The notes beneath the pieces are model-generated. The model searched no databases and was not told the DNA's origin. It saw only the letters and a program-made list of their open reading frames with translations. From a virus (taxonomy: Duplodnaviria; Heunggongvirae; Uroviricota; Caudoviricetes), in IMG/VR virus record IMGVR_UViG_2698536366_000007: a stretch of DNA of 11,875 bases; one strand, 5' to 3'. The position numbers and the translations under genes were made by a program. Of the stretch, positions 429 through 11,196 are shown piece after piece; within the stretch, counting starts at the first letter, position 1; every line of letters starts with the position of its first letter.

Positions 429-769
429 CGACTTTTACCAGAGAGCAGTTAATAGCTCACGCAGAGGAGACTATTGAAGCACAGAGACTGTGCATACCGG
501 GCACAATCGACCATGACATCATCCGCACATATAAGATGGATATTGCTGTTCTGGAAATCGCACTGGTATCGCTGGCAGCAGAGCCAGCCGGTAAATTGCA
601 TGAATACAAACCAGTGGGATATCAGCGTCTGGTCGATGAGTTAACCATGCTGGTAAAGCAGTTAACCTGGCAACTGAGGAAAGCGAAGCCAGACTGCAAA
701 TTACCGGATAAGGCGATGAGTTATCTGGAGCGGAACGGACTGATAAGCGTGGAGGATATTTTACGATGA
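425..769 (+). CDS. hypothetical phage protein (114 aa), paralogous to the preceding 55-aa ORF
   Basis: ORF track; ATGA overlap with the upstream ORF and with the downstream 27-aa ORF; shared motifs with the 261-428 product. Confidence 0.55.
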
Positions 770-849
770 CCTGGCCTGAAGCATTAACAACGGTAGGAAT
801 TGCGATGGCGGTGGCGCTGGTGGTGTATTCGATTTGCCGCTGGGGATAA
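766..849 (+). CDS. small hydrophobic peptide (27 aa, [27 protein letters not shown]), predicted single transmembrane helix
   Basis: ATG 766 overlaps the upstream stop (ATGA); strong SD GGAGGA at 751-756 with 9-nt spacing; stop TAA 847-849. Below the ORF-track size cutoff. Confidence 0.45.
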
Positions 850-1003
850 AAACGGTTTGCGGGAAAAGGAGAGTTAAGTAGAATTGCAGCGGGTGCTTGA
901 GGCTATCTGTCTCAGGCATGAACACCAAAAGGCAGATAGAGAAAAGCCCCAGTTAACATTACGCGTCCGGCAAGACGCTTAACATTAATCTGAGGCTCAA
1001 TCT

Positions 1004-1216
1004 ATGAACGGCAAATCTAGGTTAGCCTCTTACGTGCCGAAAGGCAAGGAGAAGCAGGCTATGAAGCAGCAAAAGGCGATGTTAATCGCCCTGATCGTCA
1101 TCTGTTTAACCGTCATAGTGACGGCACTGGTAACGAGGAAAGACCTCTGCGAGGTACGAATTCGAACCGGCCAGACGGAGGTCGCTGTCTTCACAGCTTA
1201 CGAACCTGAGGAGTAA
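1004..1216 (+). CDS. hokD: Hok/Gef family type I toxin with in-frame mok-like N-terminal extension; core hok reading frame 1061-1216 (51 aa)
   Basis: Core translation MKQQKAMLIALIVICLTVIVTALVTRKDLCEVRIRTGQTEVAVFTAYEPEE matches, from memory, the HokD/RelF toxin; the leader carries hok-mRNA-like elements (GCTTGAGGC at 896-904; AGCCTCTTAC...GCAAGGAGAAG immediately before the ATG). Confidence 0.8.
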   Translation: MNGKSRLASYVPKGKEKQAMKQQKAMLIALIVICLTVIVTALVTRKDLCEVRIRTGQTEVAVFTAYEPEE

Positions 1217-1286
1217 GAGACCAGGCGGGGGAGAAATCCCTCGCCACCTCTGATGGGTCAGGCATCCTCAATGCACCCACACTTAA

Positions 1287-1311
1287 CCCGCTTCGGCGGG
1301 TTTTTGTTTTT
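1287..1311 (+). terminator. rho-independent terminator of the hok transcript
   Basis: Stem CCCGC / GCGGG with UUCG tetraloop (1287-1300) followed by TTTTTGTTTTT. Confidence 0.65.
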
Positions 1312-2852: not shown

Positions 2853-3233
2853 ATGACCGAGCGCATAGAATTTGTTTTACCTTACCCGCCGACGGTGAAC
2901 ACTTACTGGCGTCGTCGTGGCAGCACATATTTTGTATCAAAAGCCGGGGAGCGTTATCGCCGGGCAGTGGCGCTTATTGTTCGCCAGCAGCGGCTGAAAT
3001 TAAGCCTGTCCGGAAGGTTGGCAATAAAAATTATTGCAGAACCACCGGATAAGCGCCGCCGTGACCTGGACAATATTCTGAAAGCGCCGCTGGATGCGCT
3101 GACGCATGCGGGGTTGCTAATGGACGATGAGCAGTTTGATGAAATCAATATCGTTCGTGGTCAGCCAGTATCTGGTGGACGTCTGGGGGTGAAGATTTAT
3201 CCCATAATGCTTGAAGGGCAGGTCAAAAAATGA
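2853..3233 (+). CDS. rusA: RusA-like Holliday junction resolvase
   Basis: 126 aa with the RRRDLDN acidic motif and overall similarity to E. coli RusA; ATG immediately follows the upstream stop. Confidence 0.8.
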   Translation: MTERIEFVLPYPPTVNTYWRRRGSTYFVSKAGERYRRAVALIVRQQRLKLSLSGRLAIKIIAEPPDKRRRDLDNILKAPLDALTHAGLLMDDEQFDEINIVRGQPVSGGRLGVKIYPIMLEGQVKK

Positions 3234-4051
3234 AACTGGAAGATTTACCGAAATACTACTCCCCAAAATCCCCCGGCCTGACTGATGCATCGGCCTCAAC
3301 GTCGAAAGATGCGCTGAGTATCACTGATGTGATGGCCGCGCAGGGCATGACACAGAATCGGGCTGAGATGGGGGTTTCTGCGTTCCTTGGGAAAATGGGC
3401 ATTAGTATGAATGACAGAGAGCGGGCAACAGAATTGCTGACAGAATATGCACTCAGTCGGTGTGATCGCGTGGCGGCGTTAAGAAAACTCCCGGCAGAAA
3501 TAAAACCGGCAGTGATGCGTATTATGGCTTCGTATGCGTTTGAAGATTATGCCCGTAGCGCGGCGAGCAAAAAACAGTGCCCCTGCTGTCACGGAAAAAA
3601 ATTTATTGAAAGCGAGGTTTTTACAAACAAGATCCAGTATCCGGATGGTAAGCCGCCGGTATGGGCAAAGTGTACGAAAGGTGTGTATCCGTCTTACTGG
3701 GAAGAATGGAAAAAAGTCAGGGAGGTGGTAAAAGTTGCCTGTCCGGAGTGTGGCGGAAAGGGTGAGGTTTCCACCGCCTGTAAGGATTGCCGTGGGCGTG
3801 GTGTCGCCATTCATCGTGAAGAGTCGGTAAAACGTGGTATGCCTGTTATCAGAGACTGCCAGCGTTGTGGTGGTCGTGGCTATGAAAGACTACCATCAAC
3901 GGAGGCATTTAATGCTATATGCGAGGTGACAAACCAGATAACACGCGCGTCATGGGAAAAAACAGTTAAGAAATTTTATGATGCGCTGGTGACCCGGTTT
4001 GATATTGAAGAAGCATGGGCTGAGCGGCAGTTAAAAAAGGTAACTAGGTAA
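3230..4051 (+). CDS. Q: late-gene antitermination protein Q (phage 82/Qin type, zinc-binding)
   Basis: 273 aa; several CxxC pairs (CPCCHGKK, CPECGGKG, CKDCRGRG, CQRCGGRG); ATGA overlap with rusA; immediately followed by a PR'-like promoter and terminator. Confidence 0.8.
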   Translation: MKLEDLPKYYSPKSPGLTDASASTSKDALSITDVMAAQGMTQNRAEMGVSAFLGKMGISMNDRERATELLTEYALSRCDRVAALRKLPAEIKPAVMRIMASYAFEDYARSAASKKQCPCCHGKKFIESEVFTNKIQYPDGKPPVWAKCTKGVYPSYWEEWKKVREVVKVACPECGGKGEVSTACKDCRGRGVAIHREESVKRGMPVIRDCQRCGGRGYERLPSTEAFNAICEVTNQITRASWEKTVKKFYDALVTRFDIEEAWAERQLKKVTR

Positions 4052-4056
4052 CAAGG

Positions 4057-4084
4057 TTGATTTTTCCGGAATCTGTGGTAAATT
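4057..4084 (+). promoter_or_regulatory. candidate late promoter PR' (with qut region) downstream of Q
   Basis: -35 TTGATT (4057-4062), 16-bp spacer, extended -10 TGgTAAATT (4076-4084). Confidence 0.5.
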
Positions 4085-4133
4085 CGTCATAACGATGGGC
4101 GTTTTATGCCTGACGTTAGAAGAGTTTCTACAA

Positions 4134-4155
4134 CCCGCCGCCGAGCGGGTTTTTT
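4134..4155 (+). terminator. tR'-like intrinsic terminator
   Basis: CCCGC-cgccga-GCGGG stem-loop followed by TTTTTT, about 50 nt downstream of the PR' -10. Confidence 0.7.
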
Positions 4156-4275
4156 ATGACTGAAATCGCGTCAGTACAGTAAACGCGCTGGTGGCGGTGA
4201 ATACCTGTCTTTCAGCTTGCTGGCTTTTTCGACAAGAGTTATTGGTGTGTCACGTTAACCGGAAAAGGAAAAGAC

Positions 4276-4623: not shown

Positions 4624-5682
4624 ATGCTTAATACTGTAAAAATATCCAGTTGTGAGTTAATCAACGCCGACTGCCTGGAATTTATCCGGTCGTTACCCGA
4701 AAATTCTGTTGACCTGATAGTCACGGACCCGCCGTACTTTAAAGTGAAGCCTGAGGGCTGGGATAACCAGTGGAAGGGCGACGATGATTACCTGAAGTGG
4801 CTGGACCAGTGTCTGGCGCAGTTCTGGCGGGTGCTGAAACCTGCCGGAAGTCTTTACCTGTTCTGTGGTCATCGCCTGGCATCTGATATCGAAATCATGA
4901 TGCGTGAACGCTTCAGTGTGCTGAACCATATTATCTGGGCGAAGCCGTCCGGACGCTGGAACGGATGCAACAAGGAAAGCCTGCGGGCGTATTTCCCCGC
5001 CACAGAGCGCATTCTGTTCGCGGAACATTATCAGGGGCCGTATCGTCCGAAAGATGCCGGGTATGCGGCGAAGGGCAGTGCACTGAAACAGCATGTGATG
5101 GCCCCGCTGATTTCTTACTTTCGTGATGCGCGAGCTGCCCTGGGGATAACGGCAAAACAGATTGCAGATGCCACAGGAAAGAAAAACATGGTGTCGCACT
5201 GGTTCAGTGCCGGTCAGTGGCAGTTGCCGAATGAAAGCGATTATCTGAAATTACAGGCGCTGTTTGCCCGGGTGGCAGAAGAGAAGCATCGGCGTGGTGA
5301 ACTGGAAAAGCTCCACCACCAGCTGGTGGATACGTATACCTCACTGAACCGGCAGTATGCGGAGCTGCTGAGTGAATATAAACATCTGCGGCGGTATTTT
5401 GGCGTGACGGTGCAGGTGCCGTATACCGATGTGTGGACGCATAAACCGGTGCAGTTCTATCCCGGGAAACATCCGTGCGAAAAACCGGCAGAAATGCTGC
5501 AGCAGATAATCAGCGCTAGCAGTCGTCCGGGTGACCTGATTGCAGATTTTTTCATGGGGTTGGGTTCGACAGTGAAAGCGGCACTGGCGCTCGGGCGTCG
5601 TGCAATTGGCGTTGAGCTGGAGACTGAACGTTTTGAGCAGACGGTTCGGGAAGTACAGGATTTAGTCAGCCAGAACGGATGA
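4624..5682 (+). CDS. DNA methyltransferase, beta-class amino-MTase (N6-adenine or N4-cytosine), phage-borne and apparently orphan
   Basis: 352 aa; N-terminal DPPY motif (VDLIVTDPPY) and C-terminal FxGxG AdoMet motif (FFMGLGST); no restriction endonuclease partner seen in the window. Confidence 0.85.
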   Translation: MLNTVKISSCELINADCLEFIRSLPENSVDLIVTDPPYFKVKPEGWDNQWKGDDDYLKWLDQCLAQFWRVLKPAGSLYLFCGHRLASDIEIMMRERFSVLNHIIWAKPSGRWNGCNKESLRAYFPATERILFAEHYQGPYRPKDAGYAAKGSALKQHVMAPLISYFRDARAALGITAKQIADATGKKNMVSHWFSAGQWQLPNESDYLKLQALFARVAEEKHRRGELEKLHHQLVDTYTSLNRQYAELLSEYKHLRRYFGVTVQVPYTDVWTHKPVQFYPGKHPCEKPAEMLQQIISASSRPGDLIADFFMGLGSTVKAALALGRRAIGVELETERFEQTVREVQDLVSQNG

Positions 5683-5722
5683 TATTGAAGAATTAATTAC
5701 GCGTCGTTATTATGCGGCTCCC

Positions 5723-5798
5723 GGCCCTTTAGCTCAGTGGTGAGAGCGAGCGACTCATAATCGCCAGGTCGCTGGTTCAAATCCAGCAAGGGCCACCA
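5723..5798 (+). tRNA. ileZ: tRNA-Ile (anticodon CAU, ileX-like minor isoleucine tRNA), copy A
   Basis: Cloverleaf by eye: acceptor GGCCCTT/AAGGGCC, anticodon loop CTCATAA, T-arm GCTGG-TTCAAAT-CCAGC, encoded CCA; close to E. coli ileX. Confidence 0.85.
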
Positions 5799-5805
5799 TC
5801 ACATA

Positions 5806-5882
5806 CCGCCATTAGCTCATCAGGAAAGAGCGCCAGCCTTCGAAGCTGGCTGCGCGGGGTTCAAGTCCCCGATGGCGGTCCA
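5806..5882 (+). tRNA. argN: tRNA-Arg (anticodon UCG), copy A
   Basis: Acceptor CCGCCAT/ATGGCGG, anticodon stem CCAGC/GCTGG with loop CTTCGAA, T-arm CGGGG-TTCAAGT-CCCCG, encoded CCA. Confidence 0.75.
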
Positions 5883-5895
5883 TTATCTGCATCAT

Positions 5896-5972
5896 GCGTT
5901 GTTAGCTCAGCCGGACAGAGCAATTGCCTTCTAAGCAATCGGTCACTGGTTCGAATCCAGTACAACGCGCCA
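5896..5972 (+). tRNA. argO: tRNA-Arg (anticodon UCU), copy A
   Basis: Acceptor GCGTTGT/ACAACGC, anticodon stem ATTGC/GCAAT with loop CTTCTAA, T-arm ACTGG-TTCGAAT-CCAGT, encoded CCA. Confidence 0.85.
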
Positions 5973-5986
5973 CACTTATTTTCCCT

Positions 5987-6012
5987 GGCTCGCTTTTGCG
6001 GGCCTTTTTTTT
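5987..6012 (+). terminator. candidate intrinsic terminator after tRNA cluster copy A
   Basis: Imperfect GC stem (GGCtCGC / GCGGGCC) followed by a T8 run. Confidence 0.45.
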
Positions 6013-6416
6013 AAATGTCTCACAATTCAGACGGTTGACAGTTGTCTGTTTTGCGGGGAGTTTGTTAAAAGAAACTGGCATGGTGAATCCCCCTGTGCGG
6101 AGGGGCAATCAGCGAGTAGGTATATGGGATAATCGCGGATTCAGGTGCTGGTACTGAATTCACCGGGAGGCACCCGGCATCATGCAATGGCACATAGCGC
6201 CACTCTCCAGCCCTCTCCGGAGGGGCTTTTCTGTGCCGGATACATCACAGTTTCTGGAACCTTAGGTACTACAGTATCAGTCAGGGTGCTATATTTTCAG
6301 ATGTGATGAAAGCCTGTCAGCAGGCAGGGCGTATCGGAAATGACCCAGTAGAGAAAACGTTGACTCAGATACCGGTGCTGAGTTACCGGGAAACCGGCAT
6401 CACATGACCGCTATCC
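6011..6416 (+). repeat. conserved non-coding element X, copy A (core 6011-6227 shared by all three copies; 6228-6416 shared with copy B only)
   Basis: Near-identical to 8281-8685 and, for the core, to 10923-11130; no convincing ORF; contains TTGACA at 6035-6040 and two GC hairpins sharing CGGAGGGG. Confidence 0.7.
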
Positions 6417-6814
6417 TGAGGTGTACTGGCAATAGCGGACACTACCATTTGTTCTTTTTTTAAGCAGCCATCTGATGATATTTTTCCCTGAAGGCTGCCG
6501 GGGAGATATTCCCCAGACGAGAGTGACGACGCTGACGATTGTAGAAAATCTCAATGTATTCCCGTATTACTGAGATGGCTTCATCCCGGTTATTAAAACG
6601 ATAGTGGCTCAGGCTCTCATTTTTCAGCGTTCCCCAGAAGCTTTCCATCGGAGCGTTGTCGTAACAGTTACCTTTACGCGACATTGATGTTTTCAGACCA
6701 GACTGCTCCTGTATGACCCGGTAATCGTATGCGCAGTACTGTGAACCTCGATCAGAGTGGTGGATTAGCCCGGCAGGTGGGCGCTGGCTCCTGAGCGCCA
6801 TAAACAGGGCTTTA
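6417..6814 (-). mobile_element. IS600 fragment (398 bp from the orfB end, including the terminal inverted repeat)
   Basis: Matches 8686-8083 of the complete copy, then switches abruptly into Q coding sequence at 6815. Confidence 0.85.
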
Positions 6815-7232
6815 TCCAGTATCCGGATGGTAAGCCGCCGGTATGGGCAAAGTGTACGAAAGGTGTGTATCCGTCTTACTGGGAAGAATGGAAAAAAGTC
6901 AGGGAGGTGGTAAAAGTTGCCTGTCCGGAGTGTGGCGGAAAGGGTGAGGTTTCCACCGCCTGTAAGGATTGCCGTGGGCGTGGTGTCGCCATTCATCGTG
7001 AAGAGTCGGTAAAACGTGGTATGCCTGTTATCAGAGACTGCCAGCGTTGTGGTGGTCGTGGCTATGAAAGACTACCATCAACGGAGGCATTTAATGCTAT
7101 ATGCGAGGTGACAAACCAGATAACACGCGCGTCATGGGAAAAAACAGTTAAGAAATTCTATGATGCGCTGGTGACTCGGTTTGATATTGAAGAAGCATGG
7201 GCTGAGCGGCAGTTAAAAAAGGTAACTAGGTT
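6815..7232 (+). pseudogene. 3' fragment of a second Q antiterminator gene (about 139 codons), stop codon lost through a small deletion
   Basis: About 99% identical to 3634-4051, with SNPs and a 6-bp deletion that removes the stop; fused to the IS600 fragment. Confidence 0.8.
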
Positions 7233-7258
7233 GATTTTTCCGGAATCTGTGGTAAATT
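7231..7258 (+). promoter_or_regulatory. second copy of the PR'-like promoter
   Basis: Same -35 TTGATT and extended -10 TGgTAAATT as at 4057-4084. Confidence 0.45.
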
Positions 7259-7307
7259 CGTCATAACTATGGGCGTTTTATGCCTGACGTTAGAAGAGTT
7301 TCTACAA

Positions 7308-7329
7308 CCCGCCGCCGAGCGGGTTTTTT
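7308..7329 (+). terminator. second copy of the tR'-like terminator
   Basis: Same CCCGC-cgccga-GCGGG stem plus T-run as at 4134-4155. Confidence 0.65.
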
Positions 7330-7368
7330 ATTGCGGAATTAATTACGGACCGTTATTATTCTGCTCCC

Positions 7369-7444
7369 GGCCCTTTAGCTCAGTGGTGAGAGCGAGCGAC
7401 TCATAATCGCCAGGTCGCTGGTTCAAATCCAGCAAGGGCCACCA
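7369..7444 (+). tRNA. ileZ: tRNA-Ile (CAU), copy B
   Basis: Identical to 5723-5798. Confidence 0.85.
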
Positions 7445-7451
7445 TCACAAA

Positions 7452-7531
7452 CCGCCATTAGCTTATCAGGAAGAGCAGACGACACGATAACAGGGTTGTT
7501 GGTGCGGGGGCGGGTCCCCGATGGCGGTCCA
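7452..7531 (+). pseudogene. degenerate tRNA-Arg-like sequence (probable tRNA pseudogene), copy B
   Basis: Acceptor and D arms match the copy-A tRNA-Arg(UCG), but the anticodon arm is replaced by unrelated sequence and the T-loop lacks TTCRA. Confidence 0.6.
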
Positions 7532-7544
7532 TTATCGGTATTCA

Positions 7545-7621
7545 GCGTTGTTAGCTCAGCCGGACAGAGCAATTGCCTTCTAAGCAATCGGTCACTGGTT
7601 CGAATCCAGTACAGCGCGCCA
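7545..7621 (+). tRNA. argO: tRNA-Arg (UCU), copy B
   Basis: Same as 5896-5972 with one acceptor-stem change (A to G, giving a G-U pair). Confidence 0.8.
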
Positions 7622-7731
7622 TATTCATTCTTCCAGATTCCTTCCGGCAGAGCCTTATACTGAAATATACCTGGCTCAGGATATTGTTGAAAATATTTTA
7701 TGTTTGTCAAAAATAAAAGTTCTGTTAAGTA

Positions 7732-8085
7732 TTGATTGAGTGTTTGTTATACGGTCTAATGGTTTTTTCAGCATTAAATATTTATCATTCATATGGTGTG
7801 GGTAGAGTGAATATTGATGAGGCGTCGGGGTGTTTCATCCTTAGGCAGCGTATTGATATAGTCAATGCAGCACGAGCAAAGGCCTTCAGCCGTTTGACAG
7901 TTTTGTTCTGTACTCCTGATCGTCTTTCGGGAAGAGACGTTATTATTCTGAATAGTGATGCTATACAGAGGGTTTGCGATGAGTTCATGGTTGCTAATTC
8001 AGAATTATTTGCTCTTGTTCAGGAGTACAACAGAATAGCCAGGACCTGTGGTATGGATGAACTTCGGATTACTCATCTGGGGTAG
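7732..8085 (+). CDS. hypothetical cargo protein (up to 117 aa) in AT-rich DNA, copy 1; start codon uncertain
   Basis: Longest ORF in the post-tRNA slot; track start 7732 is TTG, first in-frame ATG at 7759, in-frame GTGs at 7798 and 7807; no strong SD; no family recognised. Confidence 0.45.
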   Translation: MIECLLYGLMVFSALNIYHSYGVGRVNIDEASGCFILRQRIDIVNAARAKAFSRLTVLFCTPDRLSGRDVIILNSDAIQRVCDEFMVANSELFALVQEYNRIARTCGMDELRITHLG

Positions 8086-8280
8086 ATACATATCTGGATT
8101 ATCACCTGTTACGGTAAAAAGTGATTGCTTACTGTTTTTGTGAATGGCATTGCAGCAGCCGGATAATGTCAGTGCTGGCTGACGGTGTGCTGGTGGCGGG
8201 TGTGGTGGTTGTTGCTTTCCCGTTGCTGAAAAAGAAAACGCCAGACTGTTAGCCGGGTATCAGTTAGCGGGAGAAATTTT

Positions 8281-8685
8281 TAAATACTTCACAATTCAGG
8301 CGGTTGACTGTTGTCTGGTTTGCGGGGAGTTTGTTAAAAGAAACTGGCATGGTGAATCCCCCTGTGCGGAGGGGCAATCAGCGAGTAGGTATATGGGATA
8401 ATCGCGGATTCAGGTGCTGGTACTGAATTCACCGGGAGGCACCCGGCATCATGCAATGGCACATAGCGCCACTCTCCAGCCCTCTCCGGAGGGGCTTTTC
8501 TGTGCCGGATACATCACAGTTTCTGGAACCTTAGGTACTACAGTATCAGTCAGGGTGCTATATTTTCAGATGTGATGAAAGCCTGTCAGCAGGCAGGGCG
8601 TATCGGAAATGACCCAGTAGAGAAAACGTTGACTCAGATACCGGTGCTGAGTTACCGGGAAACCGGCATCACATGACCGCTATCC
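8281..8685 (+). repeat. conserved non-coding element X, copy B
   Basis: Matches 6011-6416 (SNPs in the first 40 bp, identical thereafter up to the IS600 junction). Confidence 0.7.
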
Positions 8686-8728
8686 TGAGGTGTACTGGCA
8701 ATAGCGGACACTACCATTTGTTCTTTTT

Positions 8729-9547
8729 TTAAGCAGCCATCTGATGATATTTTTCCCTGAAGGCTGCCGGGGAGATATTCCCCAGACGAGAGTGACGACG
8801 CTGACGATTGTAGAAAATCTCAATGTATTCCCGTATTACTGAGATGGCTTCATCCCGGTTATTAAAACGATAGTGGCTCAGGCTCTCATTTTTCAGCGTT
8901 CCCCAGAAGCTTTCCATCGGAGCGTTGTCGTAACAGTTACCTTTACGCGACATTGATGTTTTCAGACCAGACTGCTCCTGTATGACCCGGTAATCGTATG
9001 CGCAGTACTGTGAACCTCGATCAGAGTGGTGGATTAGCCCGGCAGGTGGGCGCTGGCTCCTGAGCGCCATAAACAGGGCTTTACCTGTCAGCTCTTTTGT
9101 CATGCGCTCTCCCATGGCGTAGCCGACAATTTCGCACGTATAAACATCTTTGATGCCAGCGAGGTACAACCATCCCTCCTGTGTGGCAACATACGTCAGG
9201 TCCGCCACCCAGACCTGATTTGGTGCTGTAGGAGCGAACGTCTGGTTCAGCAGATTTGGCGCAACTGGCAGATTGTGGTTCGAGTTCGTAGTCGCTCTGA
9301 ACTTGCGTTTCTGCTTACAGCGTAGCCTTAGCTCCTTACGAAGACGTGCCAGTCGGTCACGACCAACGATGATGCCATTCTCTGCCAGCTCCGTCTGGAG
9401 CCGCCGGGTTCCATATGTTTCGCGAGTGCGGATATGTGCCACCTTAATCTCCAGTTTTAGCCGCTCATCACTTTGTTTTCTGTCTGAGGGTTCATGCTGT
9501 ACCCAGTTGTAATAACCGCTCCTGGATACACCAAATACCTGACACAT
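8729..9547 (-). CDS. IS600 transposase OrfB (DDE integrase domain), expressed as an OrfAB fusion by -1 frameshifting
   Basis: 272 aa from the first ATG; IS3-family OrfB sequence; the frame is open upstream into the orfA 3' end. Confidence 0.9.
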   Translation of the reverse strand: MCQVFGVSRSGYYNWVQHEPSDRKQSDERLKLEIKVAHIRTRETYGTRRLQTELAENGIIVGRDRLARLRKELRLRCKQKRKFRATTNSNHNLPVAPNLLNQTFAPTAPNQVWVADLTYVATQEGWLYLAGIKDVYTCEIVGYAMGERMTKELTGKALFMALRSQRPPAGLIHHSDRGSQYCAYDYRVIQEQSGLKTSMSRKGNCYDNAPMESFWGTLKNESLSHYRFNNRDEAISVIREYIEIFYNRQRRHSRLGNISPAAFREKYHQMAA

Positions 9548-9582
9548 CGCTTCAATGGGAAATTGTTGTCGCCATTGTTCGA

Positions 9583-9885
9583 TTAACGCGTATTTTTCAG
9601 CGACTCCTGTGCAAAATACGCTGTTGCTTTTTTTAATATATCTCGCTCAAGGCGAGCTTCATTTAACGCCTTACGCAGTTGCAGAATTTCAGATTCCAGT
9701 TCAGCCACCGTGCGGGAACCAGGAGTACCGAGCCCTTTTCTGGCGGCGGTAACCCATTGTCCTAAAGTGCCTTCAGGAAGAGATAATCGGGAAGCGCCTT
9801 CACTGATCGAAAGTTGATTTTCAAGAACCGTTCTGACAGCTTCGGCTTTGAACTCTTTAGAGTAACGTTGGGTTTTTCTGCTCAT
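9583..9885 (-). CDS. IS600 transposase OrfA (helix-turn-helix / leucine zipper)
   Basis: 100 aa; A AAA AAG slippery heptamer on the coding strand (plus-strand T7 run at 9628-9634) near its 3' end. Confidence 0.9.
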   Translation of the reverse strand: MSRKTQRYSKEFKAEAVRTVLENQLSISEGASRLSLPEGTLGQWVTAARKGLGTPGSRTVAELESEILQLRKALNEARLERDILKKATAYFAQESLKNTR

Positions 9886-10001
9886 TATTAGCTCCTTCTG
9901 ATGCCATTCTATTTCAGGAAGGAGTGTCCGTTAAACTCAGGCTACCTCAAGGGTGGTTTTTTATTGCGGAATTAATTACGGACCGTTATTATTCTGCTCC
10001 C

Positions 10002-10077
10002 GGCCCTTTAGCTCAGTGGTGAGAGCGAGCGACTCATAATCGCCAGGTCGCTGGTTCAAATCCAGCAAGGGCCACCA
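10002..10077 (+). tRNA. ileZ: tRNA-Ile (CAU), copy C
   Basis: Identical to 7369-7444. Confidence 0.85.
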
Positions 10078-10084
10078 TCACAAA

Positions 10085-10164
10085 CCGCCATTAGCTTATC
10101 AGGAAGAGCAGACGACACGATAACAGGGTTGTTGGTGCGGGGGCGGGTCCCCGATGGCGGTCCA
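10085..10164 (+). pseudogene. degenerate tRNA-Arg-like sequence, copy C
   Basis: Identical to 7452-7531. Confidence 0.6.
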
Positions 10165-10177
10165 TTATCGGTATTCA

Positions 10178-10254
10178 GCGTTGTTAGCTCAGCCGGACAG
10201 AGCAATTGCCTTCTAAGCAATCGGTCACTGGTTCGAATCCAGTACAGCGCGCCA
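10178..10254 (+). tRNA. argO: tRNA-Arg (UCU), copy C
   Basis: Identical to 7545-7621. Confidence 0.8.
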
Positions 10255-10364
10255 TATTCATTCTTCCAGATTCCTTCCGGCAGAGCCTTATACTGAAATA
10301 TACCTGGCTCAGGATATTGTTGAAAATATTTTATGTTTGTCAAAAATAAAAGTTCTGTTAAGTA

Positions 10365-10718
10365 TTGATTGAGTGTTTGTTATACGGTCTAATGGTTTTT
10401 TCAGCATTAAATATTTATCATTCATATGGTGTGGGTAGAGTGAATATTGATGAGGCGTCGGGGTGTTTCATCCTTAGGCAGCGTATTGATATAGTCAATG
10501 CAGCACGAGCAAAGGCCTTCAGCCGTTTGACAGTTTTGTTCTGTACTCCTGATCGTCTTTCGGGAAGAGACGTTATTATTCTGAATAGTGATGCTATACA
10601 GAGGGTTTGCGATGAGTTCATGGTTGCTAATTCAGAATTATTTGCTCTTGTTCAGGAGTACAACAGAATAGCCAGGACCTGTGGTATGGATGAACTTCGG
10701 ATTACTCATCTGGGGTAG
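10365..10718 (+). CDS. hypothetical cargo protein (up to 117 aa), copy 2
   Basis: Identical to 7732-8085. Confidence 0.45.
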   Translation: MIECLLYGLMVFSALNIYHSYGVGRVNIDEASGCFILRQRIDIVNAARAKAFSRLTVLFCTPDRLSGRDVIILNSDAIQRVCDEFMVANSELFALVQEYNRIARTCGMDELRITHLG

Positions 10719-10922
10719 ATACATATCTGGATTATCACCTGTTACGGTAAAAAGTGATTGCTTACTGTTTTTGTGAATGGCATTGCAGCAGCCGGATAAT
10801 GTCAGTGCTGGCTGACGGTGTGCTGGTGGCGGGTGTGGTGGTTGTTGCTTTCCCGTTGCTGAAAAAGAAAACGCCAGACTGTTAGCCGGGTATCAGTTAG
10901 CGGGAGAAATTTTTAAATACTT

Positions 10923-11130
10923 CACAATTCAGGCGGTTGACTGTTGTCTGGTTTGCGGGGAGTTTGTTAAAAGAAACTGGCATGGTGAATCCCCCTGTGC
11001 GGAGGGGCAATCAGCGAGTAGGTATATGGGATAATCGCGGATTCAGGTGCTGGTACTGAATTCACCGGGAGGCACCCGGCACCATGCAATGGCACATAGC
11101 GCCACTCTCCAGCCCCTCTCCGGAGGGGCT
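10923..11130 (+). repeat. conserved non-coding element X, copy C (core only)
   Basis: Matches the 6011-6227 core with two differences, then diverges into unique AT-rich sequence. Confidence 0.7.
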
Positions 11131-11162
11131 GTTTATATTGATTTTGTCAGATGTGAGTAAAC

Positions 11163-11196
11163 TCCTTATGGACTTTGTTGTTTTAGTCCATAAGGA
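11163..11196. terminator. perfect 12-bp stem hairpin (TCCTTATGGACT ...10 nt... AGTCCATAAGGA), probable terminator for the minus-strand ORF
   Basis: Exact inverted repeat overlapping the stop of the 11166-11501 minus-strand ORF; U-tract is weak on both strands. Confidence 0.5.

Follow-up and report, generated by a model that had tools for sequence, protein, structure and literature searches.

The hok/sok family has been under study since the 1980s, and four of its described members serve here for comparison: the hok/mok/sok system (parB) of plasmid R1 and other IncFII plasmids, the hokC/mokC/sokC locus (gef) of the Escherichia coli K-12 chromosome, the hokD (relF) gene of the K-12 Qin prophage, and hokW/mokW/sokW of the Stx phages 933W and Sp5 (VT2-Sakai). 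According to the model established for R1, a stem between the translational activator element (tac) and the fold-back inhibitory element (fbi) closes the full-length mRNA and ucb, the anti-Shine-Dalgarno element of mok, sequesters the mok Shine-Dalgarno (SD) sequence; after 3' processing, tac pairs with ucb and the mok SD with the downstream complementary box (dcb), and Sok can bind (PMC9841398). The prophage version, hokW/sokW, was characterized experimentally in 2021 (PMC8621323). In that study, hokW of Sp5 was toxic, yet the native locus was toxic only after the sokW promoter had been mutated; mutation of the -10 box abolished antitoxin activity, sokW supplied in trans from a plasmid partly restored growth, and northern blots revealed the sokW RNA (PMC8621323). 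HokW and the Hok protein of R1 share 44% identity (PMC8621323).

The locus analyzed here lies in an 11,875-nucleotide stretch of DNA (referred to below as the window) from a tailed virus of the Caudoviricetes, IMG/VR record IMGVR_UViG_2698536366_000007. We conclude, at a probability of about 0.92, that positions 891 to 1311 hold what reads as a complete hok/mok/sok type I toxin-antitoxin cassette of the hokD/hokW clade, borne by a lambdoid prophage, with predicted transcripts whose 5' ends are placed by homology (Table 1). The cassette is the already known and very common prophage version of hok/sok. It is an ordinary locus, because the Sok gene missed in an earlier note, which had been made from the DNA letters without database searches, is present. 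The features that the note did name, namely the toxin open reading frame (ORF), the hok-mRNA leader, the upstream ATG at 1004, and the terminator, are all found where it had placed them.

Table 1. Features of the hok/mok/sok cassette, in coordinates of the window
Feature	Position	Strand	Details
hok promoter, -35 candidate	856-861	+	TTTGCG; weak
hok promoter, -10	879-884	+	TAGAAT; putative; 6 nt upstream of G891
Full-length hok (mok-hok) mRNA	891-1311	+	about 421 nt; 5' end from start of RF01794 match and R1 homology, 3' end from terminator
tac	891-902	+	GGGUGCUUGAGG; invariant or covarying across loci
ucb (anti-SD of mok)	944-952	+	AAGCCCCAG; from predicted folds
Sok antisense RNA gene	942-1012 (1012→942)	-	predicted, about 71 nt; ends placed by homology with sokW and sokC
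mok SD	992-995	+	GAGG; 8 nt 5' of ATG 1004
Target of Sok 5' tail	999-1018	+	mok start codon and codons 2-5; complementary to unpaired Sok tail; hypervariable
mok reading frame	1004-1216	+	70 codons; in frame with hok, stop codon common to both
Sok start site	G1012	-	9 nt inside mok; placed by homology
Sok promoter	1019-1047	-	-35 TTGCCT (1047→1042), 17-nt spacer, -10 TAACCT (1024→1019); identical to sokW
dcb	1024-1029	+	AGCCUC; kept as GCCTCTTAC in all loci
hok SD	1047-1051	+	AGGAG; 9 nt 5' of ATG 1061
hok toxin gene	1061-1216	+	51 aa; Pfam HOK_GEF; identical to HokD
fbi	1266-1278	+	CCUCAAUGCACCC; pairs with tac in MFE fold
Intrinsic terminator of hok mRNA	1285-1311	+	AACCCGC-TTCG-GCGGGTT, then T-run; UUCG loop

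Relation to described hok loci

Over positions 850 to 1288, the DNA is 93% identical to hokW/mokW/sokW of 933W and Sp5 (VT2-Sakai), whose host element is also a lambdoid phage. The two show little or no difference in the Sok promoter, the Sok hairpin, tac, ucb, dcb, and fbi. The difference lies in the Sok 5' tail together with mok codons 2 to 5, which read AACGGCAAATCT in the window and CTGAACACATGT in 933W/Sp5; the window carries another allele in place of the tail specificity of sokW and, because of this difference, cross-recognition between the window copy and sokW is unlikely. The two toxins differ only at the C-terminus (TAYEPEE in the window, VDYESEK in HokW). A UUCG terminator of its own is present in the window and absent from 933W at that position. 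The placement within the phage genome differs as well: the window copy is followed by a gene that occupies the place of K-12 rem and by DUF968, RusA, and Q, whereas the 933W and VT2-Sakai records have the hokW copy near one end.

The Hok protein of the window is identical at 51 of 51 residues to E. coli K-12 HokD (WP_000813254.1), encoded by hokD (relF) of the Qin prophage, and the gene order downstream of hok (hokD-rem-ydfU-Q in Qin) is shared. The DNA of K-12 hokD is approximately 97% identical to the window over a stretch that begins at about position 1047, at the hok SD, and takes in fbi and the terminator. Upstream of that point, K-12 has unrelated sequence that flanks relE. Because relBE there replaces everything upstream of about 1047, K-12 hokD is without tac, ucb, mok, and the Sok gene and its promoter. 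On the evidence of these alignments, the window copy reads as the intact cassette and K-12 hokD (relF) as its 5'-truncated remnant.

With the hok/mok/sok system of R1 and IncFII plasmids (parB), the window shares the order and spacing of the elements (-10, tac, ucb, mok SD, Sok, dcb, hok SD, hok, and fbi), and it also shares with R1-type loci the match to the Rfam leader model, the geometry of the Sok promoter, and the predicted conformational switch. It differs in the frame of mok (discussed below), in an extra internal GCGUC...GACGC stem in the Sok hairpin, and in being an element of a prophage, whereas that of R1 belongs to a plasmid. The leader of K-12 hokC/mokC/sokC (gef) aligns with the window throughout, mok is in frame and shares the hok stop codon, and there is a 9-nt overlap between sokC and the mok start. 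However, the hokC locus has a shorter Sok hairpin and a Sok promoter that reads TTGACC...CACTCT, in K-12 it has lost the fbi region beside IS186, and it is a chromosomal rather than a prophage locus. The extended Sok hairpin (with the inner GCGTC...GACGC stem) and the lambdoid context, both features of the hokD/hokW prophage subclade, are present in the window. The corresponding 16-nt insertion of the leader relative to the Rfam consensus is common to 933W, Rac-type, and other copies.

Within the lambdoid prophage, the locus belongs to the nin/Q region. Its neighbors encode DUF968 (1794-2852), RusA (2853-3233), the antiterminator Q (3230-4051), and a DNA methylase (4624-5682), followed by tRNAs; a Pfam search of the flanking small ORFs at 425-769, 766-849, and 1434-1718 found nothing. 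Of 5426 complete E. coli genomes searched with a 501-nt query (850-1350), 4933 gave matches, at 12,064 places in total, and 3827 hold 80% or more of the query, with 2 places per genome as the median and 9 as the maximum. Matching entries also include 78 phage records and 576 IMG/VR stretches; one contig of IMG/VR shares 99.9% identity with the window over 800 nt.

Toxin, mok frame, and antisense gene

The product of hok, MKQQKAMLIALIVICLTVIVTALVTRKDLCEVRIRTGQTEVAVFTAYEPEE, matches the Pfam family HOK_GEF (PF01848) with an E value of 1.2e-23 and 82.9 bits (cutoff, 22), and 42 of the 42 profile positions are covered. This match and the complete identity to K-12 HokD bear out the reading of the 51-aa core as a Hok/Gef toxin. 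The mok frame, preceded by its own SD (part of a GAGGC that the alignment across loci shows to be kept in every locus compared), runs through the hok start and is homologous to the annotated mokW and mokC. Its 70-aa Mok-Hok product is 89% identical to MokW of 933W, and the nested geometry of 213 nt for mok and 156 nt for hok is that of the annotated mokW/hokW.

The earlier note had recognized that hok and the ATG at 1004 share one reading frame, as is evident from the end at 1216 common to both ORFs, and had called this arrangement unusual. It does depart from plasmid R1, whose mok and hok start codons (at 116-118 and 174-176, respectively) are 58 nt apart and hence out of frame (PMC9841398), compared to 57 nt in the window. 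However, the same in-frame spacing of 57 nt is found in mokW/hokW, in mokC/hokC, and in an IncFII plasmid copy with an R1-type Hok; among 27 sampled loci with an aligned ATG, mok is in frame with hok in 18, shifted by +1 in 8, and shifted by +2 in 1. A single T accounts for the difference in frame; it lies in the box that doubles as the Sok -35 (TTGCCT versus TTGACC). Thus, an in-frame mok is normal for the hokD/hokW clade, and the word "unusual" holds only relative to R1. Given that mok translation is required only as far as the hok SD (PMC9841398), the frame relation is not expected to matter for coupling. By analogy, hok translation in the window is probably coupled through mok.

The position of Sok was obtained by transferring the annotated coordinates of sokW and sokC through the alignments, the sokW feature of 933W being itself a prediction. 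In the 933W and VT2-Sakai records, sokW is a minus-strand feature of 71 nt that overlaps the start of mokW by 9 nt, a layout like that of K-12 hokC. As these annotations put the start site 9 nt inside mok, another candidate promoter, TTAACA...TAGCCT at about 1055-1085 on the minus strand, was dropped. The match to the Rfam model named "sok" was likewise rejected as a sign of the antisense gene. It falls on the plus strand, that of the hok mRNA, both here and in the R1-type, 933W, and K-12 hokC loci; since this is the strand opposite to the annotated sokC and sokW, the RF01794 match is evidence for the leader only.

In the alignments, the -35 box, spacer, and -10 box at this position are base-for-base identical to the sokW promoter of the Stx phages 933W and Sp5. 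The -10 box, TAACCT, is the one that primer YO-421 changed to GAGCCG in the "pro-less" mutant of Sp5 (PMC8621323). Two probes of the same study can also be placed: YO-597, directed at the hokW mRNA, is an exact match to window positions 1047→1018, and YO-592, the northern probe for sokW, corresponds to positions 983-1012, with its end at the assigned +1 (PMC8621323). Under YO-592, 6 of 30 positions differ between the window and sokW, all of them inside the Sok 5' tail. Because the discriminator and the 5' tail differ, the strength of the Sok promoter could differ from that of sokW. The promoter geometry matches that of the R1-type TTGCGC-17-TATCCT and of K-12 sokC, the exact promoter string of the window occurs in 54 of 71 phage- or prophage-derived copies, and the boxes are kept as TTGCCT or TTGACC and TAACCT or TAATCT across Escherichia, Kluyvera, Citrobacter, Photorhabdus, and Pantoea. 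The RNA predicted to start at G1012 would have a single-stranded 5' tail of 14 nt (1012→999) followed by a long terminator hairpin that ends in GGGGCUUUU, with a predicted folding energy of -29.9 kcal/mol (z = -4.93). A 5' tail followed by a long hairpin is the Sok architecture of the family. The window thus appears to encode Sok in cis, with its own promoter and terminator hairpin, opposite the mok initiation region.

This result goes against the earlier note, which had located no convincing Sok promoter on the minus strand and had suggested that the toxin may be unregulated, silenced, or regulated differently. The failure to see a promoter is itself reproducible, as a sigma-70 consensus scan of positions 800-1400 reported none on the minus strand. 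Apart from the hok terminator, that scan returned only a promoter-like site at 1325-1354, which lies downstream and is unrelated. The hok and Sok promoters, both poor matches to the consensus, were missed, and so the scan could not decide the question. The Sok promoter matches the consensus at 7 of 12 positions (4/6 and 3/6), which places it below the threshold of the scan, and the R1-type Sok promoter TTGCGC-17-TATCCT scores exactly the same. A Sok-less reading might also draw on the RefSeq annotation, which at equivalent loci gives hokD only, with no mok and no ncRNA, and on the strand of the Rfam "sok" match, itself no proof of a Sok gene. These points are met by the identity to an experimentally tested promoter, by the canonical architecture of the predicted RNA, and by the conservation of the promoter boxes between genera beside a freely varying segment. 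We therefore consider a hok locus without Sok highly improbable: the intact gene at the homologous minus-strand position 1012→942 is the very finding that the earlier note had said would refute its proposal.

The segment opposite the Sok 5' tail stands out in its variability. A sample of 71 IMG/VR copies that have an identical Hok and a full leader, the window included, gave a mean column entropy of 0.58-0.79 at 999-1018, compared to 0.00-0.16 in the adjacent leader and approximately 0.00-0.08 in hok. At least 15 tail alleles occur among the 71 copies, and the allele of the window is found in 7 rows, one of which is the window itself. Two or more intact copies were present in seven of nine multi-copy genomes checked and, in this small sample, co-resident intact copies differed in allele in 7 of 7. 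From the R1 literature, a YUNR (U-turn) motif is expected just after the mok AUG; inspection by eye found none there in the window allele (AUGAACGGC) or in the commonest allele.

The hok mRNA and its predicted folds

Rfam RF01794 matches positions 891-1066 on the plus strand (112.4 bits; gathering score, 59; E value, 1.7e-25), and the leader, GGGTGCTTGAGGC...CAGGCATG, begins at 891, in agreement with the hok-mRNA leader elements described in the earlier note. RF01794 also hits the R1-type, 933W, and hokC loci on the hok strand. The geometry from TAGAAT to G891 is that of the R1-type TATGAT-N6-GGCGCTTGAGG, in which the -10 box of R1 hok is the one named in PMC9841398, and the -10 column is kept as TAnnnT across genera. 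At the other end of the transcript, the UUCG-tetraloop terminator, which had also been recognized from the letters, has a stem of 7 bp, 5 of them GC pairs, after which comes TTTGTTTTTA.

Folding of the full-length mRNA (891-1311) gave a minimum free energy (MFE) of -169.2 kcal/mol (z = -6.64). In this structure, tac pairs with fbi over their full extent, and ucb (945-952) pairs with the mok SD region (990-997). In the fold of a shortened mRNA (891-1262; z = -5.27), positions 891-898 of tac pair with 944-950 of ucb, and the mok SD (992-997) pairs with dcb. The hok SD is paired in the full-length fold, whereas it is largely free in the shortened one. Bases 1008-1015, which are complementary to the first bases of Sok, form a hairpin loop in both. 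The window mRNA is thus predicted to reproduce the published R1 switch, the proposed folding of the full-length transcript having returned the tac/fbi and ucb/mok-SD structure of R1.

The long-range pairing is also visible in comparisons between loci. In 27 of 28 loci, the best partner of the mRNA 5' end is found at a distance of 45-56 nt downstream of the hok stop codon, the sole exception being a K-12-type hokC copy that adjoins IS186. Compensatory changes link tac and fbi (GGGUGC/GCACCC versus GGGCGC/GCGCCC; GAGG/CCUC versus GAGA/UCUC versus GAAG/CUUC), and the covariation spans Escherichia, Kluyvera, Citrobacter, Photorhabdus, and Pantoea. The Pfam and Rfam matches and the z-scores of the folds (-6.6 for the mRNA and -4.9 for the predicted Sok) are far beyond chance.

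A cassette that is structurally intact could still be an inert relic, with a hok mRNA that is never activated and with no phenotype. The conservation of its parts speaks against this, as every regulatory element is intact and evidently under constraint; moreover, phenotypes have been measured for the 93%-identical Sp5 locus, namely toxicity, activity of the antitoxin, and a phage release altered 2-fold (PMC8621323), and a HokD peptide has served as a previously characterized toxic control in toxicity assays (bioRxiv 2025.08.07.668861). Inertness would be in line with the weak -35 of the hok promoter, with the truncation of the K-12 hokD copy, and with work cited in bioRxiv 2025.08.07.668861, in which the intact chromosomal hokA, hokB, and hokC loci are reported to support neither post-segregational killing nor rifampicin activation. 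Since intact chromosomal hok loci have been reported to be inactive, physiological activity of the window copy is not guaranteed, but we regard an inert relic as unlikely. By analogy with these homologues, the Hok of the window is probably toxic and probably neutralized by its cognate Sok.

Biological role and annotation

Based on its predicted elements, and on what is known of R1 and Sp5, the cassette would work as follows. The weak promoter with the TAGAAT box would give rise to the 421-nt mRNA, in which fbi would pair with tac and leave ucb to sequester the mok SD, such that neither mok nor hok would be translated. Slow exonucleolytic removal of the 3' end would allow tac to pair with ucb and the mok SD with dcb, and the hok SD would open. 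From the opposite strand, the promoter identical to that of sokW would produce the Sok RNA of about 71 nt, with a free 5' tail of 14 nt complementary to the mok start region. As in R1 and Sp5, Sok would be expected to bind the processed mRNA and to block translation of mok, and so the coupled translation of hok, and the duplex would then be degraded, partly by RNase III. Should Sok synthesis stop, either through loss of the element or through induction of the prophage, the unstable Sok would decay and the stable hok mRNA would be translated. The 51-aa Hok would then insert in the inner membrane and depolarize or lyse the cell, as inferred from the same two systems.

For a prophage, the most likely role by analogy is an aid to lysis and phage release upon induction, as shown for Sp5. 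In Sp5 treated with mitomycin C, sokW disappeared and HokW accumulated in a RecA-dependent manner, and deletion of the locus halved phage release (PMC8621323); because of these results, help with lysis is the best-supported role. The cassette may also stabilize the prophage, and roles in prophage maintenance or phage exclusion are possible. With the mechanism unchanged, its main role might instead be abortive infection of superinfecting lytic phages or prophage addiction. The annotations of 933W and VT2-Sakai read "prophage maintenance," and, in a result cited second-hand in PMC8621323, R1 hok/sok on a high-copy plasmid cut T4 plating by 42%. However, in the one direct experiment made with a prophage homologue, the result favors lysis and release after RecA-dependent induction (PMC8621323), and we consider it rather doubtful that defense or addiction, and not help with lysis, is the main role.

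As a discovery, the locus carries little weight; its practical value is in annotation. The RefSeq label "hokD" omits both mok and Sok, and the Rfam model named "sok" matches the strand of the hok mRNA. For these reasons, and because the Sok promoter has a weak consensus, a reader who has only the sequence can be misled into inferring that there is no antitoxin.

The hypervariable Sok tail may bear on cross-talk between co-resident prophage copies and is a side point of mild interest only. No Sok RNA encoded on the K-12 chromosome is able to silence R1 hok (PMC9841398). We tentatively suggest, although with less than even confidence, that the Sok-tail segment (12-20 nt within 999-1018) is under diversifying selection, such that the same Hok toxin is combined with many mutually orthogonal specificity alleles. 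If this is true, the Sok of each prophage would protect only against its own hok mRNA, and the cassette would be an element-specific marker of addiction or competition among co-resident lambdoid prophages.

Variation in the Sok 5′ tail and the mok reading frame

A short segment (window positions 999-1018) that encodes both the 5′ tail of Sok and mok codons 2 to 5 is hypervariable. Among 71 copies that encode an identical Hok, this segment occurs as at least 15 alleles, with an entropy of 0.58-0.79 compared to about 0.0-0.16 in its flanks. Nine genomes were checked for co-resident hok copies, and in all seven that carry two or more intact copies the Sok-tail alleles differ between those copies. 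The sequences tied to this variability are the window segment itself and the compared stretches L061-L140 and L007-L052.

One box forms the Sok -35 and also lies immediately 5′ of the hok Shine-Dalgarno sequence. A one-base indel within it, seen in the locus alignment as the column GG-CAA/GGTCAA, gives a Sok -35 of either TTGCCT or TTGACC. In the hokD/hokW-like, Kluyvera, and related copies, the same indel also determines whether mok shares the frame of hok or is offset by +1. In hokC-type copies, mok is in frame despite TTGACC, through a second 1-nt deletion.

Near the Hok C terminus, the Tyr47 codon lies in a TACG context. According to a survey of Hok toxins, TadA A-to-I editing recodes a Tyr to Cys in hokD, as in hokB, hokC, and hokE (bioRxiv 2025.08.07.668861).

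Database labels attached to hok loci

In the window (891-1066) and in every reference locus (L003, L004, and L060), the Rfam model called "sok antitoxin" (RF01794) hits the sense strand, i.e., the hok mRNA. As this strand is opposite to that of the annotated sokC and sokW RNAs, a match marks the hok leader and not the Sok transcript.

Near-identical E. coli-type hok loci also occur under other organism names: on two very short contigs, one assigned to Acinetobacter idrijaensis (275 bp) and one to Xanthomonas pisi (431 bp), and in a record titled "Actinobacillus phage." Contamination, or E. coli prophage sequence under a wrong label, is the probable source of these loci (L021, L026, and the phage-record match H32).

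Flanking ORFs and the region downstream of Q

Neither of the ORFs that flank hok has a match in a Pfam search. In Sp5, the cloning primer YO-432 begins at the homologue of the upstream ORF.

Features of the window
Feature	Position	Strand	Remark
ORF, 27 aa, hydrophobic	766-849		directly 5′ of hok promoter
Sok -35 box	1042-1047
hok Tyr47 codon with following base (TACG)	1199-1202
ORF, 94 aa	1434-1718		position equivalent to K-12 rem
Repeat, first copy	4046-4164		immediately 3′ of Q
Repeat, second copy	7220-7338
tRNA and STnc100 module, three copies	5683-11196
STnc100 (RF02076)	6049-6238, 8318-8507, 10951-11140		122-132 bits
IS3-family transposase remnants	6460-6996, 8729-9547	-	between tRNA/STnc100 copies

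Downstream of Q, a module of tRNA and STnc100 is present in three copies, with Met-CAT and Arg (TCG/TCT) tRNAs, and the sequence that directly follows Q recurs further downstream. It appears that the prophage late-region leader was triplicated in association with IS elements.
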